DNA of 36,457 bases from a virus (taxonomy: Duplodnaviria > Heunggongvirae > Uroviricota > Caudoviricetes), in IMG/VR virus record IMGVR_UViG_2671180405_000008; one strand, written 5' to 3'. Numbering within the stretch: position 1 is the first letter of the stretch; each line of letters opens with the position of its first letter. The notes below the pieces were generated by a model that searched no databases, was not told the DNA's origin, and saw nothing but the letters and a program-made list of their open reading frames with translations. This document shows, in pieces, positions 1-32,311 of the stretch. A program made the translations under genes and the position numbers.

Positions 1-66
1 GCCAATCAGCACGCTGAATCTCCCGTCCAAAAGCACAAATCATGCCATGCAGGCCAGAAACCGCCA

Positions 67-92
67 TTATCTAAAACCTCGGTTTACGAGAA
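67..92. repeat. Serine-invertase crossover site (gix/cix/hix-like 26-bp site), left end of invertible tail-fibre segment, inverted relative to the site at 2983-3008
   Basis: Sequence ttatctaaaacctcggtttacgagaa; its reverse complement ttctcgtaaaccgaggttttagataa matches the site at 2983-3008 at 22 of 26 positions and resembles the gix consensus from memory; an alternate tail-fibre reading frame opens immediately inside it. Confidence 0.6.
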
Positions 93-851
93 CTCGGCAC
101 AAGCGGGGAGAAAATACCGTTACTCAGTACAGCGAATACCTGGACTAATCGACAAACATTCAGCGGTGGCCTTTCTGGTGAACTATCCGGCAATGCTTCT
201 ACAGCTGCAAAATTAAAAACTGCCAGGAAAATAAGCAATGTGGCTTTTGATGGTTCCTCCGATATCACATTAAAAGCAAGTCATGTTGGTGCGTTTGCCT
301 TAGGGAAAACAGGAAGCACCGTTGCGAATGATAAAGCAGTTGGATGGAACTGGAGTAGCGGAGCCTATAACGCAACTATTAGTGGTGCATCAACGTTAAT
401 TATTCATTTTTATATGGGAGAAGGAAGTTGTCCTGCAGCTCAGTTTCGGATTAATTATAAAAATGGCGGTATTTTTTATCGTTCAGCCCGTGATGGTTAT
501 GGTTTTGAAGCCGACTGGTCCGAATTTTACACCACCAGAAAACCTTCAGCAGGAGATGTTGGTGCACTGCCGTTATCTGGTGGTCAACTGAATGGTGCAC
601 TGGGTATCGGAACATCCAGTGCTCTTGGCGGTAATTCGATTGTATTGGGTGATAATGACACGGGCTTTAAACAAAAAGGCGATGGTAATCTGGATGTTTA
701 TGCTAATAACGTCCATGTTATGCGCTTTGTCTCCGGAAGCATTCAAAGTAATAAAACCATAAATATTACGGGACGTGTTAATCCCTCGGATTACGGTAAC
801 TTTGATTCCCGCTATGTGAGAGATGTCAGACTTGGCACACGAGTTGTTTAG
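75..851 (+). CDS. Alternate tail-fibre C-terminal variable cassette (promoterless, silent orientation); reading frame continues through an in-frame TAG at 849-851 to a TAA at 999-1001
   Basis: Frame-3 translation from 75 reads NLGLRELGTS...NTWTNRQTFSGG...VAFDGSSDITLK...SRYVRDVRLGTRVV; the last 48 codons after the TAG (TMKKGVMYEKSGHVITGL...[17 protein letters not shown]) match the conserved P2 H-type C-terminus; no start codon, begins at the crossover site. Confidence 0.6.
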   Translation, partial: NLGLRELGTSGEKIPLLSTANTWTNRQTFSGGLSGELSGNASTAAKLKTARKISNVAFDGSSDITLKASHVGAFALGKTGSTVANDKAVGWNWSSGAYNATISGASTLIIHFYMGEGSCPAAQFRINYKNGGIFYRSARDGYGFEADWSEFYTTRKPSAGDVGALPLSGGQLNGALGIGTSSALGGNSIVLGDNDTGFKQKGDGNLDVYANNVHVMRFVSGSIQSNKTINITGRVNPSDYGNFDSRYVRDVRLGTRVV

Positions 852-1003
852 ACCATGAAGAAAGGCGTGATGTATGAAAAATCAGGCCATGTAATCACGG
901 GGCTTGGTATTATCGGTGAAGTCGATGGTGATGATCCGGCAGTATTCAGACCAATACAAAAGTTAATTAACGGAACATGGTATAACGTATCGCAGGTATA
1001 ATC

Positions 1004-1537
1004 ATGCAGCATTTAAAAAACATTGTCGCAGGTAATCCAAAAACCGTTGAACAATACCAGCTAACAAAGAATTTTGATGTTATCTGGTTATGGTCCGAAG
1101 ATGGAAAAAATTGGCATGAGGAATTAAAAAACTTTCAGGAGGATACAATAAAACTGGCTTACACAGTTGAGGGAATAATTATTGCTATAGACAAGGATGT
1201 ATCAGCAATTAATCCAGAAGGTTTAAGTGTCGTTGAGTTGCCTGATATTACAGCAAATCGCCGGGCTGATATTTCGGGCAACTGGATGTTCAAAGATGGT
1301 GCGGTGATAAAGCGAACTTATACCGAGGAAGAGCAAAGGCAACAAGCGGAAAATGAAAAGCAGAGCCTGCTGCAGCTCGTCAGGGATAAAACCCAGCTGT
1401 GGGACTCTCAGCTACAGCTGGGCATCATTTCCGATGAGAATAAACAAAAATTAACCGAGTGGATGCTCTATGCGCAGAAGGTTGAATCCACAGACACCTC
1501 CAGCCTGCCAGTAACGTTTCCCGAACAACCAGAATGA
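1004..1537 (+). CDS. Tail fibre assembly protein (Tfa, P2 G / Mu U-like), alternate-cassette copy
   Basis: 177 aa starting [14 protein letters not shown]; paralogous to the minus-strand Tfa at 1566-2093; sits directly after the tail-fibre cassette stop. Confidence 0.75.
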
Positions 1538-1541
1538 GAGA

Positions 1542-1568
1542 AGGCCCGCTATCGGGCCTTAATTTTTA
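1542..1568. terminator. Hairpin between convergent tfa genes, possible bidirectional rho-independent terminator
   Basis: aggcccgctatcgggcct stem-loop followed by taattttta, between the plus tfa stop (1537) and minus tfa stop (1566). Confidence 0.4.
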
Positions 1569-2093
1569 TTCAGGCTTTTGTGGCCATTCAGGATTTGCCG
1601 TATCCACACGGCTGACCAGAACACTGTAGCGTTCCCATGCTTCCAGTCGTGTGCGTTCCTCGTCCGTCGCCATATTCAGCCTGACAGCGCGTTCCAGCGG
1701 CTGGATGACTGATTCAGCTTCGGAAAGCAATGCGGCCTTTTGTGATTCGGCCTGTTGTTGCAGTTCCTGTTCTGTATATTCCCTCTTTACTACTTTACCA
1801 TCCAGAAACATCCATTTTCCGTTATTGTCTGCGTGACGATTTGCCGTAATATCAGGAACTTCAACTATGCTTAGCCCTTCAGGATTAATAGTTGAAACGT
1901 CTTTACTGACAGCAACGATGATGTTGTTCTCATCGTAAGCAATTTTTATGGTGTCTGGCTGAAAATTCTTTTGTTCCTCATACCAGTTTTTGCCATCTTC
2001 GCAAAAGAGCCATACCACGCCCGCTTTTTTAGTTAGCTGGTATTGTTCCGGTGTTTTCGGATTCCCGGCCTTAATATTTTTCAGGTGCATCAT
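1566..2093 (-). CDS. Tail fibre assembly protein (Tfa), expressed-orientation copy; start probably at the MMHLKN/MHLKN methionines (2093 or 2090) rather than 2129
   Basis: ORF translation [22 protein letters not shown]...; immediately downstream of the tail-fibre stop at 2095. Confidence 0.75.
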
Positions 2094-2094
2094 C

Positions 2095-4008
2095 TTAAAC
2101 ACTCCCCACGTTGTACCATATTCCCCCAATCAATTTCTGAATTGGCCTTCTGGCAACAGTGTCGACAATATCATCCGCATTGCTGTTAATTGCGGCTGTT
2201 AAAACATAACCTGACGCATCGCCAAAGCCGTAGTCGCGCCATACGTTTTTATATTCAATGCTGCCAAGACGAATATCCCGAACGACATGATTATGCAGCC
2301 ATGTGCTTAACCAGTTGTTTTCCCACACTGAACCATAAATATCGCCACTAGACGCAACTTGCGCACCACTTCCCAGCGCAAATCCCCCATCTGTTTTAAA
2401 AATGAAATCACCACCACCATCTGAACCGTTATTAATATGAACACCATCACCACCGTTATCTTTCCACAAAAACATACGAATTCTTCCGTCTTCGTTGGCG
2501 AATGTAATGTGGTGGCGGTAATTACTTTTTAATCTAAAATTGCTGCCATTAGATTCAATATCTTTATAAAGATGTAATCCTAACTCATCAATATGTCCGA
2601 TGCGCGAACCATTTGAATAGAAGCTAATAATACCATCTCCATCTTGCCTAAATCCGGTGTCGTTATCTCCCAGAACAATGGAGTTTTCACCCAGTGCGTT
2701 ATCAGTAGCTCCAATAGCTAGACCTCCTTTAATTTTGGCCCCGTGGCTGACAGATATAGCACCTGTTCTCAGATTTATAGCGAATGGCCTTAATGGGCCG
2801 ATATTACCGTTTTCGCCTTGTCCTTCAGCCGTCGGAATGAAATGAAGAAAATCTTCTGAACGACGGAAAATTAGACCGAAGGTATCATTGAAAATTCGCA
2901 GCGCATTCACCGTGCCAATTTTCAGTTCTCCGGTCATTTTATCGCCGGAACGCTGAACGGCGTTACCAGCCTTGTTTACCGTTTCCTGTAAACCGAGGTA
3001 TTCGATAACGGCGGCAACGGTCGATTTCGCAAGAATATCCCGCCCGACTTTTGTCAGGGTTGCCAGGCTGGCGACATCATTCCCCGTAAAATACGGAAAC
3101 CTGTCTGCCGCAGTAGCAAGCCCCGCCAGCGCCGTCAGAGTGGCATCTTTCGGTTGCTTACCCGCAAGCGCGTTAGTCATGGTGGTCGCAAAATTCGGGT
3201 CGTTGCCCAGCGCCGCCGCCAGCTCGTTCAGTGTGTTCAGTGCATCAGGCGAAGAGTCTACAAGTGCGGCAATCGCAGCCATAACGAAAGCCGTGCTTGC
3301 GATTTGGGTATTATTCGTTCCCTGTCGCGCAGTTGGTGTTGTTGGCGTTCCGGTCAGTGCCGGGCTGTTTAATGGGGCTTTCTTGTTCGTTTCATCCATT
3401 ACTGCCTTAACGGCTTTTGGTGTCGCTGCCAGCGTTTCAGACGTGCTGTTGGTGGCGTTGCTGAGCTGGACAAGGCCTTTTGCGGTCAGCGAGGCGTCCG
3501 GGTGACGTCGTGACTGTTCATGCTCTTTCAGTTTGTCATCCACGTAATTCACTGTGGCCATCACCATGGTGTTATCCACGGTAAGCGCCACAGTGGCAGT
3601 GCTGGATACGGTCAGAATGGTGCGAAATGTTTGTGCACGTCCGGATCCTTCGGCAACGGTTGGCTTGTAACTTTCGGCAGTATTGCCTACCGCGATCAAA
3701 TCGCCGTGCTCATCAAACACACCAATTTCCCGGATCCAGAATCCGCCCGTTTCAGGAGGAATAACCAGCTCCGCAATAATGTGGTTCTGATGTGTTGCGT
3801 CCAGGGTGACGCGATTAACGGTATGTCGCCACACCTCATGCACAAGACGGGTCTGCTTACTGTCTGGCGTGGGTAAAGTACCGCCGCCGTCACCCACGGC
3901 CATATGTGTCAGGCGGACAGGTTTCCCATCTGGCGCGGTTGCCTGCGCTAATTTTTTTGCACCCGTATCGGTGATAATGGTTTTAAATTTTCGTGTTGTG
4001 GTACTCAT
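2095..4008 (-). CDS. Tail fibre protein (P2 gpH-like), constant N-terminal part 3009-4008 fused to variable C-terminal cassette 2095-2982
   Basis: 637 aa; N-terminus [26 protein letters not shown]... and [16 protein letters not shown]...[21 protein letters not shown] match P2 H from memory; ends [17 protein letters not shown]. Confidence 0.85.
2983..3008. repeat. Serine-invertase crossover site inside the tail-fibre gene (boundary between constant and variable parts)
   Basis: ttcctgtaaaccgaggtattcgataa, gix-like; encodes VIEYLGLQE at the constant/variable boundary. Confidence 0.6.
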
Positions 4009-4010
4009 GC

Positions 4011-4574
4011 TTAATCGTCCGGATAAATGGTAATGACTTCACCGTCGTAAGTTGCTGCTGCCGCGAAAATATCTCCCTGAATCTCCTGAATGATATTCAG
4101 CCCTGTCATGTGGCGGCTGACCGGGCGGGCATCAGCAATCAACCGCTCCATTTCCAGATACATTTCCTCCGTCACGCCACTGTCCAGCGTGCCAACATCA
4201 ATCTTGAATGTTCCGGGTTCGCCGTTGAACTCCCACCACTCAGACACGCGAATGAGGTATCCCAGCGGCTCAATGGCCCGTCGCAGGGCGCTGATGGTTC
4301 CTTTGTGTCGGTGTATCAGCCATGCATCACGAATCACCTGTCGCTTTGTCTCTTCCGGCCAGTTGCGATCCCAGCGGTCAACGGAAAACGCCCAGGCGAG
4401 ATAAGGCAGCAGATGCACCGGGCAGGTGTCCGGCGACCACAGCGTGTTGAGGTCTGCCGGAATGTCTGTAATGCGTGTTCCGACGGCTTCGGCACAACGC
4501 ATGAAATTGCTGGCTGATGGTGGTAACAGTGAATTACTCATTACGCCCACCTTCGCTGATGGTGAATGACTCAC
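4011..4574 (-). CDS. Baseplate assembly protein I (P2 gpI-like); true start may be the internal MSNSLLPP methionine near 4541
   Basis: Translation with LLPYLAWAFSVDRWDRNWPE motif; position between J and H. Confidence 0.8.
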   Translation of the reverse strand: MSHSPSAKVGVMSNSLLPPSASNFMRCAEAVGTRITDIPADLNTLWSPDTCPVHLLPYLAWAFSVDRWDRNWPEETKRQVIRDAWLIHRHKGTISALRRAIEPLGYLIRVSEWWEFNGEPGTFKIDVGTLDSGVTEEMYLEMERLIADARPVSRHMTGLNIIQEIQGDIFAAAATYDGEVITIYPDD

Positions 4575-5430
4575 AGCGCGCCGCCTGTATGTCGCTGATG
4601 GCCATATTCTGTGTGGGTTCGATTATCTCCACGCGTTGCACACCGTGCACATGCAGTGCGGCAGCAATGGCGGACAACGCCACGTCCTGACCGATAAGCC
4701 CCTGCTCAGCCAGCCACTTCCTGAACGACGATTCAGCCGCAGCCAGAATAGGTTCGGATTCCGGACCGGGGTAAAAGTACAGTTTTGCATTCAGCCGCCA
4801 TGTCACGATTCTGGCACTCTGTACGGTCAGGCGGTCGGCCACCGGGCGGGTATCCTCTGCATTCAGAACGGCGCGAACGGTATTAAGCAACGCCTCCGTT
4901 GCTGTGCCGTCGCCCTCAGTGGACAGGATGGAAACCGTCACATTTGCCGGAGACGGACTGATGGCCCGCGCATCGCGCACCAGACCGCTGGCGCTGCGGG
5001 CAAAATACTCGTATGCGCCTGACGGGCCTGCAACACTCAGGCCGTCATACGCCCGCTGCGCCCGCAGTCTCAGCGAGGTGTCGTTCTCCATCACCACGTC
5101 GGTGGTATCCGTTGCCGGAGTGATAACCAGGCGCTTTGTGTTCATATTGCCCGCGAGGTTGTCCAGGTCTGTTCCGGCGCTGTGGCTCAACATGCAGGCG
5201 CGTGCGGCCTCATTGACCCGCTGGCGTAACAGCATTTCACGAAACGACATGGTTTGAGCGATAACGTTCAGGGGTTCCGATTCCAGTTCCAGTGCGGCGG
5301 AGACGACTTCACGCTGTTCGGCGGGATAAGCTGCAATCATCATGGCCTTTGTGTCAGCCAGAATTGCCTCAAAGTCAGGCTCCGCGATGATGGCGGGTTC
5401 CGGTAACTGGGAAAGGTCAACGGCAGGCAT
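4534..5430 (-). CDS. Baseplate assembly protein J (P2 gpJ-like)
   Basis: 298 aa, position between W and I in conserved P2 order. Confidence 0.8.
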   Translation of the reverse strand: MPAVDLSQLPEPAIIAEPDFEAILADTKAMMIAAYPAEQREVVSAALELESEPLNVIAQTMSFREMLLRQRVNEAARACMLSHSAGTDLDNLAGNMNTKRLVITPATDTTDVVMENDTSLRLRAQRAYDGLSVAGPSGAYEYFARSASGLVRDARAISPSPANVTVSILSTEGDGTATEALLNTVRAVLNAEDTRPVADRLTVQSARIVTWRLNAKLYFYPGPESEPILAAAESSFRKWLAEQGLIGQDVALSAIAAALHVHGVQRVEIIEPTQNMAISDIQAARCESFTISEGGRNE

Positions 5431-5433
5431 GAT

Positions 5434-5784
5434 TTACTCCCTCAGCGTGATGGTTAATTCAACATTCTGCATGGTCTGCATGACAGTGCCCGACAGCGTC
5501 ACCCCGGCGTGGCCTCCTGCCTTCCAGACAACGTCGATGGCGTTCAGGGCAATGCGTGGTTCCCATCGTGTCAGTGCAATCACGGTAGCACTCATGCATT
5601 GCAGACGCGTGGTGTTATTCATGGGTTCGTCAATCAAATCAGGCACAAGGCTGCCATATTCCCGTCGCATAACCCGGCTTGCCAGCGGGGTGGTCAGGAT
5701 GTCCCTGACTGACTGTTTCAGGTGCGCCATATCGTTCAGGTTTCCCGTCCCGTCCGGGTTCATTCCTGTGTAGCGGGTTGTCAC
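5434..5784 (-). CDS. Baseplate wedge protein W (P2 gpW / GPW-gp25 family)
   Basis: 116 aa, conserved position between V and J. Confidence 0.75.
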   Translation of the reverse strand: MTTRYTGMNPDGTGNLNDMAHLKQSVRDILTTPLASRVMRREYGSLVPDLIDEPMNNTTRLQCMSATVIALTRWEPRIALNAIDVVWKAGGHAGVTLSGTVMQTMQNVELTITLRE

Positions 5785-6362
5785 TGCGGGCCTCCTGTCG
5801 AATCGCTGCCACCTTTAACGCCACCGTGCTTATGCGTATGCACTGTGATGCCGTTTGAGGTGAAATCGCCGCCGCTGTGCGTGATATTGCCGCTCATCGT
5901 TCCCCCTTTTGTGACGTCAAGCGTCGCTGTTCTCAGAAGGTCTGTGCATTCCACGACAGGCGTGTTCAGTGTCACGCTGATGGATGCCTGCAAAGTGGCC
6001 GTTTTCATGCCGCTTGCGCTCAGTGCGCCTGCGTCCGCGTCGTAGCGGAACACCGCGCCGTCCGGCGCGCTGACCACGATTTCTTTCAGGCTTTTGCCGG
6101 GTGCCGGAATGGCATCACTCCACAGGCTGCCGATTATCATGGCGGTTTCCGGGTTGCCGCCGATGCAGGCAATTGCCACCTGTTCGCCTGGTGATGGCGG
6201 AAACCACACGTTGAAGTCTCCCGCGCGCGTGGTGTTCCAGCGCAGCCAGCCTGTTTCCAGTTCGCCGCTGCGAACGCGCACGCACCAGGATTCCTCATCA
6301 ACTTCAGAGATGATCCCGGTGCGGATGATATTGCTCAGCAGTCGCATGAGTTCTGCGCTCAT
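5781..6362 (-). CDS. Baseplate spike / assembly protein V (P2 gpV-like)
   Basis: 193 aa, conserved order S-V-W-J-I-H. Confidence 0.75.
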   Translation of the reverse strand: MSAELMRLLSNIIRTGIISEVDEESWCVRVRSGELETGWLRWNTTRAGDFNVWFPPSPGEQVAIACIGGNPETAMIIGSLWSDAIPAPGKSLKEIVVSAPDGAVFRYDADAGALSASGMKTATLQASISVTLNTPVVECTDLLRTATLDVTKGGTMSGNITHSGGDFTSNGITVHTHKHGGVKGGSDSTGGPQ

Positions 6363-6994
6363 CGTACAGCCTCCGCAATCCGGCCCAGCACCGTGTTATA
6401 AATCAGGCGCTCATCTGCCTGGCTGATACCCAGCAGCTCACGTACCGGGTAATCGGTGAAAATGCCCGGCGCAACCTGATCGCGCTCACCGAACTGATGA
6501 ACGCGTGCAATACGTGCGGCCACGCCGCTGTAACCCACCGTCACACCGGAAGCATCTGCACGGGCTTTCAGGTAGCGGGCGGTGCGCAGTTTTACGAACA
6601 TGGAGACGCGCCTGGTGCTGTCCTGGTTGATGCGCCGGGTGCGTATTTCCAGAAAACGGTCGATGTCATCCCGGTAAAACGTGCGGATATTGTTTTTATC
6701 CTCATCCCACCCGGTGATGGTTCGCCCGTATTTCCCCGTGTCGTGATGCCAGTTTTTCAGCGTGCGTGCTTCGTTATTCCAGATAAAGCGAATGCGCTCC
6801 TGTATCCGGGTTACGCGGCGTCTGCGTGGTGTCCATGCGGTCCCGTCCGGCGCTTTCTGTGACCGGATACGCGCCTGCTGGGCGCGGCGTAAATCCTGTG
6901 CCAGCTTTCTGGCGATGTTATTAATGGCCTGCTGATTCAGGCTGTCGCGGATAGCCTCAAAGGTTTCATCCACGCGGGTGAATGCCTTATCCAT
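6359..6994 (-). CDS. Putative tail completion / virion morphogenesis protein (gpS-position gene)
   Basis: 211 aa ORF between R (intact in the second copy) and V; assignment is by position, length differs from P2 S. Confidence 0.5.
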   Translation of the reverse strand: MDKAFTRVDETFEAIRDSLNQQAINNIARKLAQDLRRAQQARIRSQKAPDGTAWTPRRRRVTRIQERIRFIWNNEARTLKNWHHDTGKYGRTITGWDEDKNNIRTFYRDDIDRFLEIRTRRINQDSTRRVSMFVKLRTARYLKARADASGVTVGYSGVAARIARVHQFGERDQVAPGIFTDYPVRELLGISQADERLIYNTVLGRIAEAVR

Positions 6995-7068
6995 CGCTTT
7001 CCCCCCACGTCACATCCTGGAATACATGCGACCAGTCGCCTTCGGAAGAGGGCAGGCGGGGTTTTGGC

Positions 7069-8566
7069 TCAATCTTTATAAAGATGTAATCCTAACTCAT
7101 CAATATGTCCGATGCGCGAACCATTTGAATAGAAGCTAATAATACCATCTCCATCTTGCCTAAATCCGGTGTCGTTATCTCCCAGAACAATGGAGTTTTC
7201 ACCCAGTGCGTTATCAGTAGCTCCAATAGCTAGACCTCCTTTAATTTTGGCCCCGTGGCTGACAGATATAGCACCTGTTCTCAGATTTATAGCGAATGGC
7301 CTTAATGGGCCGATATTACCGTTTTCGCCTTGTCCTTCAGCCGTCGGAATGAAATGAAGAAAATCTTCTGAACGACGGAAAATTAGACCGAAGGTATCAT
7401 TGAAAATTCGCAGCGCATTCACCGTGCCAATTTTCAGTTCTCCGGTCATTTTATCGCCGGAACGCTGAACGGCGTTACCAGCCTTGTTTACCGTTTCCTG
7501 TAAACCGAGGTATTCGATAACGGCAGCAACGGTCGATTTCGCAAGAATATCCCGCCCGACTTTTGTCAGGGTTGCCAGGCTGGCGACATCATTCCCCGTA
7601 AAATACGGAAACCTGTCTGCCGCAGTAGTAAGTCCGGCCAGCGCCGTCAGGGTGGCATCTTTCGGTTGCTTACCCGCAAGCGCGTTAGTCATGGTGGTCG
7701 CAAAATTCGGGTCGTTGCCCAGCGCCGCAGCCAGCTCGTTCAGCGTGTTCAGTGCATCAGGTGACGAATCTACAAGGGCGGCAATCGCAGCCATAACGAA
7801 AGCCGTGCTTGCGATTTGGGTATTATTCGTTCCCTGTCGCGCAGTTGGTGTTGTTGGCGTTCCGGTCAGTGCAGGACTATTTAAGGGCGCTTTCTTGTTC
7901 GTTTCACCCATTACCGCCTTAACCGCTTTTGGCGTTGCCGCCAGTGACTCGGAAGTGCTGTTGGTCGCACTGCTGAGCTGTACTATCCCCTTTTTCGTCG
8001 TGCTCGCATCCTCAAGCGCCACGGCGGATGCAATATCCTCTGCCCGTTTTGCTGCTGTCTCGGCGCGCGTTGCCGCGGATTCAGCAGCAACTTTGCTCTG
8101 AGATGCAGCCGTCGCACTGCCTGCCGCCTCTGATGCTTTCGTTGTTGCTGTCGTGGCACTACCTTTCGCTGCTGACGCTTGTCTGGTCGCCTCATCTTTT
8201 GAAGCAGACGCAGATGATGCCGATGACGCCGCTGAACTGGCTGACGATGCGGCTGCTGCCTTAGAGGAAGCAGCATTGTCTGCTGAAGTCTTTGCATTTG
8301 TTTCAGAGGTTTTTGCTGCAGAAGCAGACCTCGCTGCTGCAGTGGCTTGCTCAGTGGCTTTGCCAGCCTTCGTTGTGGCTGTTGAAGCGGATGATGCGGC
8401 GCTTTCTGCCGATTTTCCGGCGGCGGTGGCACTGGCTGAGGCCTGCCCGGCACTTGTTGACGCGGCACTGGCAGATAATGCAGCCGCTGTTTTTGAACCT
8501 GCCGCAGCTGAGGCGCTCTGTCCCGCTGCTGTTTCAGAAGACTTAGCGTTCGTCTCGGACGTTTTA
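7069..8566 (-). pseudogene. Chimeric tail-fibre fragment: Ala/Ser/Thr-rich Stf-like repeats (8566-7980) fused to a diverged H-like constant region and a variable cassette identical to 2560-2982; N-terminus truncated by the IS, C-terminus truncated at the 7070/7072 junction
   Basis: ORF 7069-8598 translation; first 11 codons (MVVSAIASTPH) lie inside the IS terminal repeat; ends HLYKD exactly where homology to copy 1 stops. Confidence 0.6.
7494..7519. repeat. Third copy of the invertase crossover site, same orientation as 2983-3008
   Basis: Identical 26-mer ttcctgtaaaccgaggtattcgataa. Confidence 0.55.
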
Positions 8567-8609
8567 TGAGGTGTACTGGCAATAGCGGACACTACCATTT
8601 GTTCTTTTT

Positions 8610-9428
8610 TTAAGCAGCCATCTGATGATATTTTTCCCTGAAGGCTGCCGGGGAGATATTCCCCAGACGAGAGTGACGACGCTGACGATTGTAGAAAATC
8701 TCAATGTATTCCCGTATTACTGAGATGGCTTCATCCCGGTTATTAAAACGATAGTGGCTCAGGCTCTCATTTTTCAGCGTTCCCCAGAAGCTTTCCATCG
8801 GAGCGTTGTCGTAACAGTTACCTTTACGCGACATTGATGTTTTCAGACCAGACTGCTCCTGTATGACCCGGTAATCGTATGCGCAGTACTGTGAACCTCG
8901 ATCAGAGTGGTGGATTAGCCCGGCAGGTGGGCGCTGGCTCCTGAGCGCCATAAACAGGGCTTTACCTGTCAGCTCTTTTGTCATGCGCTCTCCCATGGCG
9001 TAGCCGACAATTTCGCACGTATAAACATCTTTGATGCCAGCGAGGTACAACCATCCCTCCTGTGTGGCAACATACGTCAGGTCCGCCACCCAGACCTGAT
9101 TTGGTGCTGTAGGAGCGAACGTCTGGTTCAGCAGATTTGGCGCAACTGGCAGATTGTGGTTCGAGTTCGTAGTCGCTCTGAACTTGCGTTTCTGCTTACA
9201 GCGTAGCCTTAGCTCCTTACGAAGACGTGCCAGTCGGTCACGACCAACGATGATGCCATTCTCTGCCAGCTCCGTCTGGAGCCGCCGGGTTCCATATGTT
9301 TCGCGAGTGCGGATATGTGCCACCTTAATCTCCAGTTTTAGCCGCTCATCACTTTGTTTTCTGTCTGAGGGTTCATGCTGTACCCAGTTGTAATAACCGC
9401 TCCTGGATACACCAAATACCTGACACAT
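8610..9428 (-). CDS. IS3-family transposase OrfB (DDE integrase domain)
   Basis: 272 aa; HSDRGSQY and NCYDNAPMESFWGTLK motifs typical of IS3-family OrfB. Confidence 0.85.
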   Translation of the reverse strand: MCQVFGVSRSGYYNWVQHEPSDRKQSDERLKLEIKVAHIRTRETYGTRRLQTELAENGIIVGRDRLARLRKELRLRCKQKRKFRATTNSNHNLPVAPNLLNQTFAPTAPNQVWVADLTYVATQEGWLYLAGIKDVYTCEIVGYAMGERMTKELTGKALFMALRSQRPPAGLIHHSDRGSQYCAYDYRVIQEQSGLKTSMSRKGNCYDNAPMESFWGTLKNESLSHYRFNNRDEAISVIREYIEIFYNRQRRHSRLGNISPAAFREKYHQMAA

Positions 9429-9463
9429 CGCTTCAATGGGAAATTGTTGTCGCCATTGTTCGA

Positions 9464-9766
9464 TTAACGCGTATTTTTCAGCGACTCCTGTGCAAAATAC
9501 GCTGTTGCTTTTTTTAATATATCTCGCTCAAGGCGAGCTTCATTTAACGCCTTACGCAGTTGCAGAATTTCAGATTCCAGTTCAGCCACCGTGCGGGAAC
9601 CAGGAGTACCGAGCCCTTTTCTGGCGGCGGTAACCCATTGTCCTAAAGTGCCTTCAGGAAGAGATAATCGGGAAGCGCCTTCACTGATCGAAAGTTGATT
9701 TTCAAGAACCGTTCTGACAGCTTCGGCTTTGAACTCTTTAGAGTAACGTTGGGTTTTTCTGCTCAT
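9464..9766 (-). CDS. IS3-family transposase OrfA (HTH, leucine-zipper part)
   Basis: 100 aa MSRKTQRYSKEFKAEAVRTV..., recalled as IS600 OrfA. Confidence 0.85.
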   Translation of the reverse strand: MSRKTQRYSKEFKAEAVRTVLENQLSISEGASRLSLPEGTLGQWVTAARKGLGTPGSRTVAELESEILQLRKALNEARLERDILKKATAYFAQESLKNTR

Positions 9767-9827
9767 TATTAGCTCCTTCTGATGCCATTCTATTTCAGGA
9801 AGGAGTGTCCGTTAAACTCAGGCTACC

Positions 9828-11537
9828 TCACTCTGACCAGTCAGCTTCAAAGCCATAACCATCACGCGCTGAACGATAAAAAATACCGCCGTTCCTGTAA
9901 TTCACGCGGAACTGTACAGCAGGGCAGCTCCCCGTATTCATATTGAAGTGGAGGATTAATGTCGATGCGCCACCAATGTTTGCGTTATAGACCCCGCTAT
10001 TCCAGTTCCAGCCAACAGCTTTATCATTTCCGACAGTGCTTCCTGTTTGCCCTAAAGCAAATGCAGGTTGTTGATTTTTCGTGTTGTAGTCTCGTCGCCA
10101 GCCAGGAGCGTAAGCATCACCATGATTAATATAAGTGAATTGAGCGTTAGTAATTCCGCCACCGCTGGACGTGCTCGGCGTGGTAACGCGTATGGTCATT
10201 GCGCCGCGAGTGCCAATAACTTCCACCACAGCACCTGCAAGACAAATATTTCCGCAACCTGTATCTGTAATGACCTTATTATTTGCATAAGCCCATGAGC
10301 CTTTGCACATCCAGTAAGGATGGTTAAATGCTCCCTGACTCTCCAGCCACGAAATAAATTGCGCGGTTGTCCAGACCTGACTATCGCCACCAATATTCAG
10401 CCATGAGCTATATGCGCGGCAGGCACCAATATTTTTGGTGAAGGTATCTTTCCCCGGAATATCTGCGCCGTTCTGGTTTTTCTGTAATGCGCCAGAAGCC
10501 TGATTTACCGTTTCCTGTAAACCGAGGTATTCGATAACGGCAGCAACGGTCGATTTCGCAAGAATATCCCGCCCGACTTTTGTCAGGGTTGCCAGGCTGG
10601 CGACATCATTCCCCGTAAAATACGGAAACCTGTCTGCCGCAGTAGCAAGCCCCGCCAGCGCCGTCAGAGTGGCATCTTTCGGTTGCTTACCCGCAAGCGC
10701 GTTAGTCATGGTGGTCGCAAAATTCGGGTCGTTGCCCAGCGCCGCCGCCAGCTCGTTCAGTGTGTTCAGTGCATCAGGCGAAGAGTCTACAAGTGCGGCA
10801 ATCGCAGCCATAACGAAAGCCGTGCTTGCGATTTGGGTATTATTCGTTCCCTGTCGCGCAGTTGGTGTTGTTGGCGTTCCGGTCAGTGCCGGGCTGTTTA
10901 ATGGGGCTTTCTTGTTCGTTTCATCCATTACTGCCTTAACGGCTTTTGGTGTCGCTGCCAGCGTTTCAGACGTGCTGTTGGTGGCGTTGCTGAGCTGGAC
11001 AAGGCCTTTTGCGGTCAGCGAGGCGTCCGGGTGACGTCGTGACTGTTCATGCTCTTTCAGTTTGTCATCCACGTAATTCACTGTGGCCATCACCATGGTG
11101 TTATCCACGGTAAGCGCCACAGTGGCAGTGCTGGATACGGTCAGAATGGTGCGAAATGTTTGTGCACGTCCGGATCCTTCGGCAACGGTTGGCTTGTAAC
11201 TTTCGGCAGTATTGCCTACCGCGATCAAATCGCCGTGCTCATCAAACACACCAATTTCCCGGATCCAGAATCCGCCCGTTTCAGGAGGAATAACCAGCTC
11301 CGCAATAATGTGGTTCTGATGTGTTGCGTCCAGGGTGACGCGATTAACGGTATGTCGCCACACCTCATGCACAAGACGGGTCTGCTTACTGTCTGGCGTG
11401 GGTAAAGTACCGCCGCCGTCACCCACGGCCATATGTGTCAGGCGGACAGGTTTCCCATCTGGCGCGGTTGCCTGCGCTAATTTTTTTGCACCCGTATCGG
11501 TGATAATGGTTTTAAATTTTCGTGTTGTGGTACTCAT
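9828..11537 (-). CDS. Tail fibre protein H, second copy, with a different variable C-terminal cassette that is cut by the IS insertion (stop codon formed at the IS boundary)
   Basis: 569 aa; identical to copy 1 up to LGLQETVN then diverges; C-terminal ...GGIFYRSARDGYGFEADWSE matches the silent cassette at 75-851 up to the IS joint. Confidence 0.75.
   Translation of the reverse strand: MSTTTRKFKTIITDTGAKKLAQATAPDGKPVRLTHMAVGDGGGTLPTPDSKQTRLVHEVWRHTVNRVTLDATHQNHIIAELVIPPETGGFWIREIGVFDEHGDLIAVGNTAESYKPTVAEGSGRAQTFRTILTVSSTATVALTVDNTMVMATVNYVDDKLKEHEQSRRHPDASLTAKGLVQLSNATNSTSETLAATPKAVKAVMDETNKKAPLNSPALTGTPTTPTARQGTNNTQIASTAFVMAAIAALVDSSPDALNTLNELAAALGNDPNFATTMTNALAGKQPKDATLTALAGLATAADRFPYFTGNDVASLATLTKVGRDILAKSTVAAVIEYLGLQETVNQASGALQKNQNGADIPGKDTFTKNIGACRAYSSWLNIGGDSQVWTTAQFISWLESQGAFNHPYWMCKGSWAYANNKVITDTGCGNICLAGAVVEVIGTRGAMTIRVTTPSTSSGGGITNAQFTYINHGDAYAPGWRRDYNTKNQQPAFALGQTGSTVGNDKAVGWNWNSGVYNANIGGASTLILHFNMNTGSCPAVQFRVNYRNGGIFYRSARDGYGFEADWSE
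10511..10536. repeat. Fourth copy of the invertase crossover site, same orientation as 2983-3008; coincides with the left edge of the second 4.1 kb repeat
   Basis: Identical 26-mer; homology between the two blocks starts here. Confidence 0.55.
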
Positions 11538-11539
11538 GC

Positions 11540-12103
11540 TTAATCGTCCGGATAAATGGTAATGACTTCACCGTCGTAAGTTGCTGCTGCCGCGAAAATA
11601 TCTCCCTGAATCTCCTGAATGATATTCAGCCCTGTCATGTGGCGGCTGACCGGGCGGGCATCAGCAATCAACCGCTCCATTTCCAGATACATTTCCTCCG
11701 TCACGCCACTGTCCAGCGTGCCAACATCAATCTTGAATGTTCCGGGTTCGCCGTTGAACTCCCACCACTCAGACACGCGAATGAGGTATCCCAGCGGCTC
11801 AATGGCCCGTCGCAGGGCGCTGATGGTTCCTTTGTGTCGGTGTATCAGCCATGCATCACGAATCACCTGTCGCTTTGTCTCTTCCGGCCAGTTGCGATCC
11901 CAGCGGTCAACGGAAAACGCCCAGGCGAGATAAGGCAGCAGATGCACCGGGCAGGTGTCCGGCGACCACAGCGTGTTGAGGTCTGCCGGAATGTCTGTAA
12001 TGCGTGTTCCGACGGCTTCGGCACAACGCATGAAATTGCTGGCTGATGGTGGTAACAGTGAATTACTCATTACGCCCACCTTCGCTGATGGTGAATGACT
12101 CAC
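11540..12103 (-). CDS. Baseplate assembly protein I, second copy
   Basis: Protein identical to 4011-4574. Confidence 0.8.
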   Translation of the reverse strand: MSHSPSAKVGVMSNSLLPPSASNFMRCAEAVGTRITDIPADLNTLWSPDTCPVHLLPYLAWAFSVDRWDRNWPEETKRQVIRDAWLIHRHKGTISALRRAIEPLGYLIRVSEWWEFNGEPGTFKIDVGTLDSGVTEEMYLEMERLIADARPVSRHMTGLNIIQEIQGDIFAAAATYDGEVITIYPDD

Positions 12104-12959
12104 AGCGCGCCGCCTGTATGTCGCTGATGGCCATATTCTGTGTGGGTTCGATTATCTCCACGCGTTGCACACCGTGCACATGCAGTGCGGCAGCAATGGC
12201 GGACAACGCCACGTCCTGACCGATAAGCCCCTGCTCAGCCAGCCACTTCCTGAACGACGATTCAGCCGCAGCCAGAATAGGTTCGGATTCCGGACCGGGG
12301 TAAAAGTACAGTTTTGCATTCAGCCGCCATGTCACGATTCTGGCACTCTGTACGGTCAGGCGGTCGGCCACCGGGCGGGTATCCTCTGCATTCAGAACGG
12401 CGCGAACGGTATTAAGCAACGCCTCCGTTGCTGTGCCGTCGCCCTCAGTGGACAGGATGGAAACCGTCACATTTGCCGGAGACGGACTGATGGCCCGCGC
12501 ATCGCGCACCAGACCGCTGGCGCTGCGGGCAAAATACTCGTATGCGCCTGACGGGCCTGCAACACTCAGGCCGTCATACGCCCGCTGCGCCCGCAGTCTC
12601 AGCGAGGTGTCGTTCTCCATCACCACGTCGGTGGTATCCGTTGCCGGAGTGATAACCAGGCGCTTTGTGTTCATATTGCCCGCGAGGTTGTCCAGGTCTG
12701 TTCCGGCGCTGTGGCTCAACATGCAGGCGCGTGCGGCCTCATTGACCCGCTGGCGTAACAGCATTTCACGAAACGACATGGTTTGAGCGATAACGTTCAG
12801 GGGTTCCGATTCCAGTTCCAGTGCGGCGGAGACGACTTCACGCTGTTCGGCGGGATAAGCTGCAATCATCATGGCCTTTGTGTCAGCCAGAATTGCCTCA
12901 AAGTCAGGCTCCGCGATGATGGCGGGTTCCGGTAACTGGGAAAGGTCAACGGCAGGCAT
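12063..12959 (-). CDS. Baseplate assembly protein J, second copy
   Basis: Protein identical to 4534-5430. Confidence 0.8.
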   Translation of the reverse strand: MPAVDLSQLPEPAIIAEPDFEAILADTKAMMIAAYPAEQREVVSAALELESEPLNVIAQTMSFREMLLRQRVNEAARACMLSHSAGTDLDNLAGNMNTKRLVITPATDTTDVVMENDTSLRLRAQRAYDGLSVAGPSGAYEYFARSASGLVRDARAISPSPANVTVSILSTEGDGTATEALLNTVRAVLNAEDTRPVADRLTVQSARIVTWRLNAKLYFYPGPESEPILAAAESSFRKWLAEQGLIGQDVALSAIAAALHVHGVQRVEIIEPTQNMAISDIQAARCESFTISEGGRNE

Positions 12960-12962
12960 GAT

Positions 12963-13313
12963 TTACTCCCTCAGCGTGATGGTTAATTCAACATTCTGCA
13001 TGGTCTGCATGACAGTGCCCGACAGCGTCACCCCGGCGTGGCCTCCTGCCTTCCAGACAACGTCGATGGCGTTCAGGGCAATGCGTGGTTCCCATCGTGT
13101 CAGTGCAATCACGGTAGCACTCATGCATTGCAGACGCGTGGTGTTATTCATGGGTTCGTCAATCAAATCAGGCACAAGGCTGCCATATTCCCGTCGCATA
13201 ACCCGGCTTGCCAGCGGGGTGGTCAGGATGTCCCTGACTGACTGTTTCAGGTGCGCCATATCGTTCAGGTTTCCCGTCCCGTCCGGGTTCATTCCTGTGT
13301 AGCGGGTTGTCAC
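12963..13313 (-). CDS. Baseplate wedge protein W, second copy
   Basis: Protein identical to 5434-5784. Confidence 0.75.
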   Translation of the reverse strand: MTTRYTGMNPDGTGNLNDMAHLKQSVRDILTTPLASRVMRREYGSLVPDLIDEPMNNTTRLQCMSATVIALTRWEPRIALNAIDVVWKAGGHAGVTLSGTVMQTMQNVELTITLRE

Positions 13314-13891
13314 TGCGGGCCTCCTGTCGAATCGCTGCCACCTTTAACGCCACCGTGCTTATGCGTATGCACTGTGATGCCGTTTGAGGTGAAATCGCCG
13401 CCGCTGTGCGTGATATTGCCGCTCATCGTTCCCCCTTTTGTGACGTCAAGCGTCGCTGTTCTCAGAAGGTCTGTGCATTCCACGACAGGCGTGTTCAGTG
13501 TCACGCTGATGGATGCCTGCAAAGTGGCCGTTTTCATGCCGCTTGCGCTCAGTGCGCCTGCGTCCGCGTCGTAGCGGAACACCGCGCCGTCCGGCGCGCT
13601 GACCACGATTTCTTTCAGGCTTTTGCCGGGTGCCGGAATGGCATCACTCCACAGGCTGCCGATTATCATGGCGGTTTCCGGGTTGCCGCCGATGCAGGCA
13701 ATTGCCACCTGTTCGCCTGGTGATGGCGGAAACCACACGTTGAAGTCTCCCGCGCGCGTGGTGTTCCAGCGCAGCCAGCCTGTTTCCAGTTCGCCGCTGC
13801 GAACGCGCACGCACCAGGATTCCTCATCAACTTCAGAGATGATCCCGGTGCGGATGATATTGCTCAGCAGTCGCATGAGTTCTGCGCTCAT
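13310..13891 (-). CDS. Baseplate spike protein V, second copy
   Basis: Protein identical to 5781-6362. Confidence 0.75.
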   Translation of the reverse strand: MSAELMRLLSNIIRTGIISEVDEESWCVRVRSGELETGWLRWNTTRAGDFNVWFPPSPGEQVAIACIGGNPETAMIIGSLWSDAIPAPGKSLKEIVVSAPDGAVFRYDADAGALSASGMKTATLQASISVTLNTPVVECTDLLRTATLDVTKGGTMSGNITHSGGDFTSNGITVHTHKHGGVKGGSDSTGGPQ

Positions 13892-14523
13892 CGTACAGCC
13901 TCCGCAATCCGGCCCAGCACCGTGTTATAAATCAGGCGCTCATCTGCCTGGCTGATACCCAGCAGCTCACGTACCGGGTAATCGGTGAAAATGCCCGGCG
14001 CAACCTGATCGCGCTCACCGAACTGATGAACGCGTGCAATACGTGCGGCCACGCCGCTGTAACCCACCGTCACACCGGAAGCATCTGCACGGGCTTTCAG
14101 GTAGCGGGCGGTGCGCAGTTTTACGAACATGGAGACGCGCCTGGTGCTGTCCTGGTTGATGCGCCGGGTGCGTATTTCCAGAAAACGGTCGATGTCATCC
14201 CGGTAAAACGTGCGGATATTGTTTTTATCCTCATCCCACCCGGTGATGGTTCGCCCGTATTTCCCCGTGTCGTGATGCCAGTTTTTCAGCGTGCGTGCTT
14301 CGTTATTCCAGATAAAGCGAATGCGCTCCTGTATCCGGGTTACGCGGCGTCTGCGTGGTGTCCATGCGGTCCCGTCCGGCGCTTTCTGTGACCGGATACG
14401 CGCCTGCTGGGCGCGGCGTAAATCCTGTGCCAGCTTTCTGGCGATGTTATTAATGGCCTGCTGATTCAGGCTGTCGCGGATAGCCTCAAAGGTTTCATCC
14501 ACGCGGGTGAATGCCTTATCCAT
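13888..14523 (-). CDS. Putative tail completion / virion morphogenesis protein (gpS-position), second copy
   Basis: Protein identical to 6359-6994. Confidence 0.5.
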   Translation of the reverse strand: MDKAFTRVDETFEAIRDSLNQQAINNIARKLAQDLRRAQQARIRSQKAPDGTAWTPRRRRVTRIQERIRFIWNNEARTLKNWHHDTGKYGRTITGWDEDKNNIRTFYRDDIDRFLEIRTRRINQDSTRRVSMFVKLRTARYLKARADASGVTVGYSGVAARIARVHQFGERDQVAPGIFTDYPVRELLGISQADERLIYNTVLGRIAEAVR

Positions 14524-14983
14524 CGCTTTCCCCCCACGTCACATCCTGGAATACATGCGACCAGTCGCCTTCGGAAGAGGGCAGGCGGGGTTTTGGCTCC
14601 GGCAGGTGTTCTGCCTGCGGTGTGCCCTGACTGCTGCGCGTGATGCGAACGCGTTCCCGCAGGGGGAGCGTAAACAGGAGATCGGCGCTGTCATCGTCAT
14701 TGATAACGGCGGAAAATTTGATGTCCTGATTACGCTCCGGATTGAGCAACAACTGTGGCTGATTTTCGGATAACCACGCCAGCAGCGGCAGCGTGAGGTC
14801 GTCCAGCTCTCCGGCGTAATCCATGACAAACATCACTATCTGATAGCGGTAAACAAACGATGGGGTTTCTCCGGTCGTTTCAATGTTGCCGCTCTCCACG
14901 AAAATGGTGAATTTTTCCGGGTTGGCATGACACCACCGGCATGAACGGGTCATGGCTTCACGCAGGGAATCAGTTTTCAGCAT
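14516..14983 (-). CDS. Tail completion protein R (P2 gpR-like)
   Basis: 155 aa MLKTDSLREAMT...; position between lysis genes and S; only its last ~80 bp are present in the first repeat copy (6987-7070). Confidence 0.65.
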   Translation of the reverse strand: MLKTDSLREAMTRSCRWCHANPEKFTIFVESGNIETTGETPSFVYRYQIVMFVMDYAGELDDLTLPLLAWLSENQPQLLLNPERNQDIKFSAVINDDDSADLLFTLPLRERVRITRSSQGTPQAEHLPEPKPRLPSSEGDWSHVFQDVTWGESDG

Positions 14984-15290: not shown

Positions 15291-15528
15291 GTCGGATTTC
15301 CCCTTCCTGTTGTCGGTTCTGGCGCGCTGTCATGACGTCACGCAGTACACCGGATGCGGTGCTGATGATGGTGCCGGCCTCTTTCAGGGTCCGGCTGTAA
15401 TCGTCCAGTTGCGCCTGTGTATAACGGTTGTGTCCGTCTTCCTGCCCCAGTCTGAATGTCTGCCAGAGTGTTATGGTCAGCAGCGTGAGGACGGTCAGTG
15501 CCATCATCAGGATGTAACGCACTTTCAT
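15055..15528 (-). CDS. Inner-membrane spanin (LysB/Rz-like)
   Basis: N-terminal transmembrane helix MKVRYILMMALTVLTLLTITLW then charged coiled-coil-like region; overlaps the lipoprotein ORF. Confidence 0.55.
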   Translation of the reverse strand: MKVRYILMMALTVLTLLTITLWQTFRLGQEDGHNRYTQAQLDDYSRTLKEAGTIISTASGVLRDVMTARQNRQQEGEIRREQLRNDITTDACARAVPDARFTERLHQHAERVRAAAVVPFHPGRADRPRTSPAVSGDAIMGKHRDMERQPHGRTGNL

Positions 15529-15613
15529 GACTGGCCTCCGGTGTCACGTAAGCACCATGCACGAAAATCAGTACGACGGTTAACCAGTCCCTGTGAGCGT
15601 TCGCCGCCGCTGT

Positions 15614-16069
15614 TCACGAAGTCAGTCTGTTGCACATGTCAGGCCAGTTGTGCGCCTGTGCATGTTTCCAGATAGTGGTGCGGTGGTAGTTACGGTTCTT
15701 ATCCCTGAACCACATAAGATTTCTGCATCCAAGATTAAAGGCGGCATCTGTCATTGCCTCAAACGCGGACTGTGGCATGGCGTTGCCGCTGAAGTTCTGA
15801 TTTATGCAGTTTTCTGCATGTTGCATATCATTAACCCAGCGCCCGGCGACTTCCGTTTCGGTGTACAGACGATTTTCCACATGCCCGGTCGAGCCGCACC
15901 CCACGGTCATTACCCCGGCAATATCCCGGTAAGGCGTTGCGCGACAGTCCTCCCATGTGGCAATGCGGATTTGCGCTTCCGGGCTGGTCCGGAGTTTGTG
16001 AGGGGCAATGGAGAACCCCAGCGCCACAATGGCGGCTACGGCGTAACGTTTAACGGGCAGCTTTATCAT
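15614..16069 (-). CDS. Endolysin, T4-lysozyme-like (GH24), probable signal-arrest-release (SAR) type
   Basis: E-x8-D-x5-T catalytic spacing in ATWEDCRATPYRDIAGVMTVGCGST; weakly hydrophobic Ala/Gly-rich N-terminus AVAAIVALGFSIA. Confidence 0.7.
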   Translation of the reverse strand: MIKLPVKRYAVAAIVALGFSIAPHKLRTSPEAQIRIATWEDCRATPYRDIAGVMTVGCGSTGHVENRLYTETEVAGRWVNDMQHAENCINQNFSGNAMPQSAFEAMTDAAFNLGCRNLMWFRDKNRNYHRTTIWKHAQAHNWPDMCNRLTS

Positions 16070-30970: not shown

Positions 30971-31282
30971 ATGTCAATAGAGATATCAAAGAAGCTAAAA
31001 GCAATTCGAGAATCTGAGGGGCTTAGTCAGGCAAAGTTCGCGGATTCAATAGGTATTGCGGTTGGTACGGTTAAGCAATACGAGACTGGTATTCGAGGTG
31101 TGGGAACGGAGGTTTTACTGAAAATCACAATGCACCCGGAATTTAAAAAATACACTACGTGGTTGATGAGTAACGAAACAAATGAGGCTGCTGGGCAGAT
31201 CAGTCCTTCTCTCTCCCCTGATGGGCCAGAAAACACATCGTCTTCTCAAAAATCCCGCAAGACTGGCACACAGCCCGGCTAA
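30971..31282 (+). CDS. Immunity repressor C (P2 C-like); ORF track start at 30869 is probably too far upstream
   Basis: MSIEISKKLKAIRESEGLSQAKFADSIG...MHPEFKKYTTWLMSNETNEAAGQISPSLS resembles P2 C from memory. Confidence 0.75.
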   Translation: MSIEISKKLKAIRESEGLSQAKFADSIGIAVGTVKQYETGIRGVGTEVLLKITMHPEFKKYTTWLMSNETNEAAGQISPSLSPDGPENTSSSQKSRKTGTQPG

Positions 31283-31331
31283 TCATGGAACGCTGGGGGC
31301 ATGGTGGTCTTGTAACGCTGGGGCTTCACGA

Positions 31332-32309: not shown

Positions 32310-32311
32310 CT

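Follow-up and report, generated by a model that had tools for sequence, protein, structure and literature searches.

A Mu G-type invertible tail-fibre switch, probably from a lambdoid stf locus and inverted in trans

Background

Is the DNA between positions 67 and 3008 of the tailed-phage record IMGVR_UViG_2671180405_000008 a tail-fibre segment that still inverts, and which recombinase would turn it over? In this work we have analyzed the whole stretch of DNA under this record (36,457 nucleotides, hereafter the window), which is an entire draft contig, in fact a scaffold, with the contig end at its edge; most of it (10.5-32 kb) corresponds to a P88-like prophage. The original prediction of a Gin/Hin-type invertible tail-fibre segment has been borne out by the crossover sites, the cassettes and the presence of both orientations among complete genomes. 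We consider, with a probability of about 0.85, that 67-3008 is a Mu G-type (Gin/Din-family) invertible switch, that this copy comes from a lambdoid stf locus and that it is inverted in trans. The switch is a known, ordinary Mu-type phase-variation system and its sequences occur in thousands of public genomes; we found no account of it in the literature searched.

If the switch works as Gin and Hin do, both 26-bp sites would be bound by a serine DNA invertase, acting together with an enhancer that is occupied by Fis and lies at the 5′ end of the gene for the enzyme; the DNA would be cut at the central GA and rotated, and approximately 2.9 kb would be flipped. The constant fibre N-terminus would be fused in frame either to the variable part Hv1 (with the chaperone Tfa) or to Hv2′ (with Tfa′).

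Results

Crossover sites

Four candidate crossover sites are present in the window:
67-92, minus strand: left crossover site, gixR-like, TTCTCGTAAACC-GA-GGTTTTAGATAA; 23/26 identical to Mu gix
2983-3008, plus strand: right crossover site, gixL-like, TTCCTGTAAACC-GA-GGTATTCGATAA; 24/26 identical to Mu gix
7495-7520, plus strand: second right-type site, in a 1.5-kb contig piece (7072-8565), at an Hv1-site-stf constant join
10512-10537, plus strand: third right-type site, native to the H gene of the P88-like prophage

A repeat search of the window showed the arms 61-92 and 2983-3014 to form an inverted repeat of 32 nt with 84% complementarity, and the degenerate 26-mer TTCYYGTAAACCGAGGTWTTMGATAA matched the window four times against 0.00 matches expected (100 shuffles). 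The left and right sites were written in like orientation before alignment with Mu gixL/gixR, TTCCTGTAAACC-GA-GGTTTTGGATAA (taken from NC_000929), and the central GA was identical in the left site, the right site and Mu gix. Two inverted 26-bp sites resembling gix/cix had been predicted, and the identities to Mu gix together with the GA core uphold this. The right site was also placed correctly, exactly at the constant/variable boundary of the fibre, where it codes for ...IEYLGLQE... The sites at 7495-7520 and 10512-10537 are identical to it, and the Hv1-site-stf constant join around the former represents the parental lambdoid arrangement. Among species-representative genomes, one scan gave 0 matches to the full degenerate site; in a second scan the invertase-side half-site with its flank matched only six Poribacteria MAGs, which were dismissed as unrelated coincidences.

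The arms of the repeat are short and imperfect (84%), and one could ask whether the repeat is coincidental or whether inversion proceeds by general homologous recombination with no site-specific invertase involved. Nothing specific speaks for either, and both are extremely improbable in view of the 0 site matches expected by chance, the 23-24/26 identity to Mu gix, an invertase start 54 nt away and an exchange that lies inside the 26-bp sites (see below). RecA acts poorly on arms of 26-32 bp that contain four mismatches.

Cassettes and chaperones

The segment and its adjoining constant part carry the following features:
93-1001, plus strand: silent tail-fibre C-terminal cassette Hv2′, L-413C/P2 H-type; 93-851 matches gp37_C
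1004-1537, plus strand: Tfa′ chaperone for the silent cassette, 177 aa; Caudo_TAP, E = 4.8e-34
1541-1560, plus strand: GC-rich hairpin followed by a T-run, terminator-like, between the convergent chaperone genes
1566-2093, minus strand: Tfa chaperone of the expressed cassette, 175 aa; Caudo_TAP, E = 7.9e-37
2095-2982, minus strand: expressed variable fibre C-terminus Hv1, P2 H-type; gp37_trimer
3009-4008, minus strand: constant N-terminal part, P2/P88-type gene H; Phage_tail_fib and Phage_fiber_2

Pfam matches and gene order agree with the predicted convergent C-terminal cassettes, each with its own Tfa gene, in the architecture of the Mu G segment. The open reading frame 2095-4008 (minus strand) matches Phage_tail_fib, Phage_fiber_2 and gp37_trimer. 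At the nucleotide level Hv2′ is ~85% identical to the H/G genes of L-413C and the Tfa gene 1566-2093 is ~83% identical to P2 gene G, and the exact Tfa′ protein is present in more than 4,700 collection blocks. The reading frame across the left site runs on (...EYLGL-RELGTSGEK); complete genomes of opposite orientation carry fusion fibre genes of 918 aa and 875 aa, the fusion being in frame in both switch states. The silent cassette contains an in-frame TAG at 849-851, carried also by the complete genome L010, that splits off its last 48 codons (855-1001). Because this amber codon lies 49 codons ahead of the conserved C-terminus, the Hv2′ state of the switch probably yields a defective fibre.

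Origin of the copy and its inversion in nature

Positions 1-3012 of the window show 2 mismatches to the complete chromosomes L004 and L009 (99.9% identity), in which the segment is flanked by a pseudo-invertase, and by stf and lom; in contrast, the native P88-type segment shares only about 80-83% identity with positions 1-2967. We infer that this copy belongs to the stf locus of a lambdoid prophage beside trpEDCBA. The IS600/IS1 content points, in part, to Shigella sonnei as the tentative host.

Between the complete genomes L004/L009 and L010 the segment lies in opposite orientations, the half-sites and flanks on the fixed side have changed places exactly and reciprocally, and the exchange maps within the 26-bp sites. 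The segment does invert, because complete genomes carry both orientations with exact half-site exchange; this comparison between genomes also suggests current activity in the source isolate. A single orientation had been named as the mark of a frozen segment, and both orientations were found among the complete genomes. The own segment of the P88-like prophage likewise occurs in both orientations (L015/16/18 versus L019).

The invertase beside the left site

Two features occupy the left edge of the window:
1-12, minus strand: first four codons of a Gin/Pin-type serine DNA invertase, GTG CTG ATT GGC = M/V-L-I-G; the remainder lies beyond the contig end
13-66, minus strand: spacer separating the left site from the invertase start; homologue of the gixR-gin spacer in Mu

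Every base of 12..1 matches the invertase starts annotated in NC_049391 and E. coli DFK.1 and that of Mu gin; P88-like phages and E. coli have annotated invertases in this place. The start lies 54 nt from the left site. The Mu counterpart of the spacer presumably holds the gin promoter. It had been claimed that no serine-recombinase N-terminus is encoded left of position 67; this proved incorrect, since 12..1 (minus strand) encodes MLIG and 13-66 is the homologue of the gixR-gin spacer. The invertase was further expected to be outside the window or absent: its body does lie outside, but its first four codons are inside. In homologous loci the gene product has 195 aa and contains Resolvase and HTH_7 domains; its sequence starts with VLIGYVRVSTNDQ and includes Ser9.

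At three SNPs in 13-66 the window agrees with the lambdoid-prophage copy, whose invertase has become a pseudogene, and differs from the P88-type copy, in which the gene is intact. The pseudo-invertase of the complete chromosomes L004/L009 reads VLIGYVRVS...LVV*KLD*LG, with a stop after codon 60, and its homology ends after about 190 nt. The invertase copy starting at the window edge is probably a decayed pseudogene of this kind. Over its first 100 nt the pseudo-invertase of the 99.9%-identical complete genome differs from Mu gin by 1 nt; the annotated enhancer of P7 corresponds to cin nt 19-86, and the Hin enhancer is located about 100 bp from a site (PMC3798978). Judged by these comparisons, the decayed invertase would keep the enhancer region, outside the window.

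Proposed inversion in trans

An intact Gin orthologue of 195 aa adjoins gpU in P88-like prophages; it shares 85.1% identity with Mu Gin (over 181 aa) and 94-98% with the invertases of P88-like phages. The pseudo-invertase and this intact invertase occur together in scaffolds L012 and L013 of sister isolates, a co-occurrence resting on these draft scaffolds. As the segment's own adjacent invertase appears to have decayed, inversion would be catalysed in trans, probably by the intact Gin orthologue of the co-resident P88-like (P2-related) prophage that occupies most of the window; another Din-family invertase, e.g. the 73%-identical one named from Shigella sonnei, could be responsible instead. 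A fibre switch can apparently outlive its own recombinase and stay invertible via a paralogue in another prophage.

The decay of the invertase can also be read in another way, namely that the anatomy of a Gin switch has been kept while inversion has been lost in the source strain, the invertase being dead and one cassette a pseudogene. Such a loss is unlikely, even though several findings are consistent with it. The pseudo-invertase of the 99.9%-identical complete genomes stops after codon 60, the spacer SNPs of the window match that copy, and Hv2′ contains a TAG; in many complete genomes (L003, L005-L008) IS600 is inserted in Hv1 and the right site is gone, and in L015 IS600 lies inside the left site of the P88-like segment. 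Both sites of the window are, however, intact with matching GA cores, closely related complete genomes carry both orientations with exact half-site exchange, the enhancer region appears to be kept in the 99.9%-identical complete genome, and an intact Gin orthologue shares scaffolds with the pseudogene in sister isolates.

Inversion in trans might have a further consequence. As an orphan switch, with its own invertase lost and its sites and enhancer kept, the segment would be flipped by an enzyme of another resident prophage, the P2/P88-like Gin orthologue, which could occasionally move receptor-binding cassettes between siphovirus-type and myovirus-type prophages and give chimeras such as the 637-aa H protein of the window. 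Occasional transfer of cassettes between prophages by one enzyme is conceivable because both prophages share identical sites where the constant and variable parts of their fibre genes meet; we put this extended scenario forward tentatively, as rather less likely than not.

Scaffold gaps and the gene H fusion

Comparison of the window with the public record uncovered two hidden gaps:
7071: scaffold gap, N in the public record, A in the window
8566: scaffold gap, N in the public record, A in the window; directly adjoins the IS600 end

Gene H had been taken as the constant partner of the switch, and Hv1 is joined to it in the contig; its role is nevertheless doubtful, since in none of the complete genomes examined was the chimeric H fusion found and in all of them Hv1 is joined to stf. 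The chimeric 637-aa H protein occurs in only 4 draft contigs, and the join of Hv1 to the constant part of gene H is probably an assembly mis-join. A 4.1-kb repeat has 100% identity over 3014-7070, and sister assemblies have N runs at odd junctions, with partial duplicates that end at differing points. The third cassette (9828-10511), Mu S′v-like, is joined to the site 10512-10537 and cut by IS600 at 9830/9831. The H fusion, both additional sites (7495, 10512) and the exact 4.1-kb repeat were most likely introduced during assembly, by scaffolding or mis-joining across 38-103-bp stretches common to the fibre genes of both prophages.

If these joins were real, the lambdoid segment would have been linked to the P88-type H by an invertase or by homologous recombination, and three right-type sites and one left site would make up a network resembling a shufflon, in which 2.9, 7.4 and 10.4 kb could be inverted. 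Several observations fit such a recombinant: 1-7070 is one uninterrupted contig joining Hv1 to the P88-type Hc, the P88-type G at 3013 agrees with an exchange within 2975-3012 (site core included), the exact 637-aa chimera is present in 4 assemblies and a reciprocal-type join, stf-site-Hv3, occurs in L023. The gaps at 7071 and 8566, however, put the three right-type sites in different contigs, and in complete genomes two of these three sites belong to two different prophages. The perfect identity of the repeat also speaks against it; in sister assemblies the repeat ends at window-equivalent 4268 and 4522, beside N runs, against 7070 here. The switch point varies, with A at 3013 in L011 and L013, the chimera is absent from the complete genomes examined, and the piece 7072-8565 has the parental Hv1-stf join in the same genome. 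A genuine multi-site recombinant is therefore quite improbable, and mis-assembly is the preferred reading of the fusion. The apparent triple-site system and the 4.1-kb duplication vanish once the hidden N gaps are known, and short recombination sites common to prophages make short-read scaffolds unreliable at such loci.

Two origins of the 7070/7072 junction, a real illegitimate or tandem-duplication junction (CAAT microhomology) and one-site circle integration, were rejected in view of the N at 7071 in the public record. The ORF 7069-8598 ends at a stop made by the A that replaces N, which accounts for the discordant 361-aa gene call. Scans of the window for Rfam families and for tRNAs gave nothing.

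Discussion

The closest counterpart is the Mu G segment with Gin (also in D108 and SfMu), which has the same order of fibre constant part, site, Sv-U, U′-S′v, site and invertase. The sites are 23-24/26 identical with the GA core, the spacer is homologous, the related intact invertase shares 85% identity with Gin, and at the protein level the third cassette of the window (9828-10511) nearly matches the beginning of Mu S′v. Unlike in Mu, the hosts here are a lambdoid prophage (stf) and a P2/P88-like prophage, the fixed-side site halves differ (GGTATTCGATAA versus GGTTTTAGATAA), the adjacent invertase is probably a pseudogene and one cassette has an amber codon. The P88-like P2-related phages (Xuanwuvirus: P88, P88_4B11, phiSM) have the same layout with an annotated invertase, two fibre cassettes and two chaperones, but 1-2967 of the window is about 80-83% identical to their native segment and 99.9% to the lambdoid copy.

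The C segment of P1/P7 with Cin has alternative S/U cassettes and an invertase of the same family (about 75% identity), and the P7 enhancer falls within the 5′ portion of cin. Transcription of P7 cin runs towards the segment, and the 3′ end of the gene overlaps with cixL, whereas here, as in Mu, the invertase starts beside the site and reads away. In p15B Min and the R64 shufflon more than two sites form one contiguous invertible cluster that gives several isomers. The window has four sites, and the three of the right type lie in three contigs of the scaffold, with the N gaps between them.

The e14 P segment with Pin and the Shigella pinB, pinD and pinF loci combine a Din-family invertase with invertible fibre cassettes in defective E. 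coli and Shigella prophages; Din-family invertases reportedly complement each other in trans, and defective copies (pinF) are known. The present locus differs from these in its probable place beside trpEDCBA in a lambdoid prophage.

Crossover sites, cassettes and chaperones

The segment at 67-3008 is a switch of an already known kind, that of the Din-family serine invertases; every testable defining feature was found, i.e. site form and core, cassette/chaperone layout, in-frame alternatives and both orientations.

Features of the invertible segment (sites are compared in one orientation: cassette-side half, core, fixed-side half)
67-92, left site, TTCTCGTAAACC-GA-GGTTTTAGATAA, 23/26 identical to Mu gix
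93-851, + strand, fibre C-terminal cassette (silent), gp37_C
1004-1537, + strand, chaperone, Caudo_TAP
1566-2093, - strand, second chaperone, Caudo_TAP
2095-2982, - strand, variable end of the 637-aa fibre gene (2095-4008: Phage_tail_fib, Phage_fiber_2, gp37_trimer)
2983-3008, right site, TTCCTGTAAACC-GA-GGTATTCGATAA, 24/26 identical to Mu gix

The two inverted gix-like sites of the original prediction were confirmed by these identities, by a repeat search of the window (arms 61-92 and 2983-3014, 32 nt, 84% complementary) and by a degenerate 26-mer fitting both sites, which matches the window 4 times where 100 dinucleotide-preserving shuffles give an expectation of 0.00. Din invertases exchange strands at the central GA, which is common to both window sites and Mu gix. 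Mu gixL and gixR, taken straight from NC_000929, read TTCCTGTAAACC-GA-GGTTTTGGATAA. As predicted, the right site lies at the constant/variable boundary of gene H, where IEYLGLQE is encoded, and translation through the left site (...EYLGL-RELGTSGEK...) runs in frame into the silent cassette. The proposed Mu G layout of two convergent fibre cassettes, each with a Tfa chaperone, agrees with the Pfam families and with the Mu gene order S-U / U'-S' / gin; a terminator-like hairpin (1541-1560) separates the convergent chaperone genes. Among known systems, the window copy most resembles Mu G/Gin and the invertase modules annotated in P88-like phages, and it differs from them in its lambdoid host gene, probably decayed cis invertase and amber-truncated cassette.

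The amber codon is an in-frame TAG at 849-851, 49 codons ahead of the conserved C-terminal end, to which homologues read through. L010, a complete genome, has it too, and its conservation across related complete genomes shows that it does not stem from a sequencing error. With this codon in place, one of the two switch states probably produces a truncated fibre.

The 22-mer AAACCGAGGTTTTNGATAATGG had one exact match in each of six Candidatus Poribacteria MAGs (L025-L030) and in no other species representatives, presumably in a conserved unrelated gene.

Genomic location and orientation of the segment

More than 4,700 collection blocks contain the exact protein of the silent-side chaperone, Tfa'; in about 100 of them the contigs exceed 1 Mb. 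In the complete chromosomes examined (4.8-5.0 Mb) the segment sits in a lambdoid prophage adjoining trpEDCBA, in the order methyltransferase, 60-aa resolvase fragment, segment, side-tail-fibre gene stf (918 aa), lom and J. Against two of them, L004 and L009, window 1-3012 shows only 2 mismatches, and its identity to the segment native to P88-like prophages is only ~80-83%; three SNPs in 13-66 carry the lambdoid-copy bases, not the P88-type ones. The window also holds a P88-like prophage at 10.5-32.3 kb (GPA, capsid and terminase genes, integrase at 31182-32309). Since the integrase is followed, within 31182-36428, by two small genes without a Pfam family and then by host btuC, btuE, btuD and nlpC, this prophage is integrated beside the btuCED operon.

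Both states of the segment are present among complete genomes. In L004 and L009 the expressed cassette Hv1 is joined to stf via ...GA-GGTATTCGATAA-CGGCAG and the silent cassette Hv2' to a pseudo-invertase via GA-GGTTTTAGATAA-TGGCGG. L010 shows an exact exchange of these fixed-side halves and flanks, and an 875-aa stf-Hv2' gene replaces the 918-aa stf-Hv1 gene. This comparative evidence, used in place of the long-read test proposed originally, points to inversion by site-specific exchange at the core. Two states are likewise seen for the segment native to the P88-like prophage (L015, L016 and L018 versus L019).

Many complete genomes (L003, L005-L008) have Hv1 interrupted by IS600 and lack the right site. 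In L015 (CP026836.1, 15498-16790) the P88-type left site has IS600 inserted right next to its GA core, with a 3-bp GTT target duplication; this insertion should freeze the fibre switch of that prophage.

Invertase gene in cis and a candidate in trans

The window is a complete draft contig (CXBQ01000042.1, GCA_001250835.1; 36,457 bp) whose left end falls 12 nt inside an invertase gene. The claim that no recombinase N-terminus lies left of 67 was not upheld: 12..1 (-) reads GTG CTG ATT GGC, aligning exactly with the annotated invertase start of P88-like phages, E. coli prophages and Mu gin, which continue beyond the contig edge as ...TAT GTA AGG GTA TCA (VLIGYVRVS). Homology to the Mu gixR-gin spacer covers 13-66. 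The adjoining invertase of L004 is decayed (VLIGYVRVS...GDALVV*KLD*LG) and loses its homology with the intact version after ~190 nt. Its first 100 nt differ from Mu gin by 1 base and include the region corresponding to the P7 Cin enhancer, annotated at cin nt 19-86; the 65-bp Fis-bound enhancer of Hin is ~100 bp away from a hix site (PMC3798978). The predicted recombinase and enhancer of the window copy lie outside the window, and their support comes from near-identical relatives.

P88-like prophages of related genomes carry, adjoining gpU, an intact 195-aa invertase (Resolvase and HTH_7 domains) that shares 85.1% identity with Mu Gin over 181 aa and 94-98% with P88-like phage invertases. Pseudo-invertase and intact gene occur together in the draft scaffolds of sister isolates L012 and L013. 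Action of Din invertases in trans on foreign sites is established for Gin, Cin, Pin and Hin. The 195-aa protein is the predicted catalyst in trans; further Din-family invertases exist in these bacteria, and one of them could act instead. The segment is of low interest overall save for this possible relationship between an orphan switch and a trans-acting invertase.

Repeats and the chimeric fibre gene

Self-comparison of the window revealed that 2968-7070 equals 10497-14599 (100% identical from 3014 on), a 4.1-kb direct repeat spanning the H constant part, I, J, W, V, S and the 3' end of R, and that 2560-3012 equals 7072-7524; the two repeats thus place right-type sites at 2983, 7495 and 10512. 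At first this suggested a system with three sites or a site-specific integration, a view that has to be set against the public contig record, whose sole differences from the window are N at 7071 and at 8566, given here as A. Three contigs (1-7070, 7072-8565 and 8567-36457) have therefore been scaffolded together in the window, and a substituted A supplies the terminal stop codon of ORF 7069-8598. The piece 7072-8565, which differs from L004 at 4 positions, shows that the ordinary Hv1-site-stf join is present in this genome too, and this also points to an artefact.

Sister assemblies with this 637-aa chimera contain N or NNNNNNNN at odd junctions, and their partial P88 I-H duplicates end elsewhere (window-equivalent 4268 and 4522 versus 7070). 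Because these counterparts end at differing points beside N runs, the 4.1-kb repeat is most likely an assembly duplication. The lambdoid-to-P88 switch falls within 2975-3012 in the window (G at 3013) and within 3014-3116 in the sister drafts L011 and L013 (A at 3013); over exactly those 38- and 103-bp stretches, the two prophages have identical fibre-gene sequences. The chimera was absent from every complete genome examined. On these comparisons the most economical reading would make both the H-Hv1 fusion and the repeat assembly products, and a genuine invertase-mediated recombinant between the prophages seems unlikely.

Within its own contig, the third H gene (9828-11537) is genuine and joins the P88 constant part to a Mu S'v-like cassette. 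It is truncated at ...EADWSE (9830/9831) by a complete IS3-family IS600-like element (8567-9830, 1264 bp; OrfA 9464-9766, OrfB 8610-9428), whose opposite side is a scaffold gap. The lysozyme gene of the P88-like prophage, at 15521-16069 (-), carries a frameshift close to the 3' end and encodes 151 aa, against 182 aa in L015, suggesting that the prophage is decaying or that the consensus contains an error.
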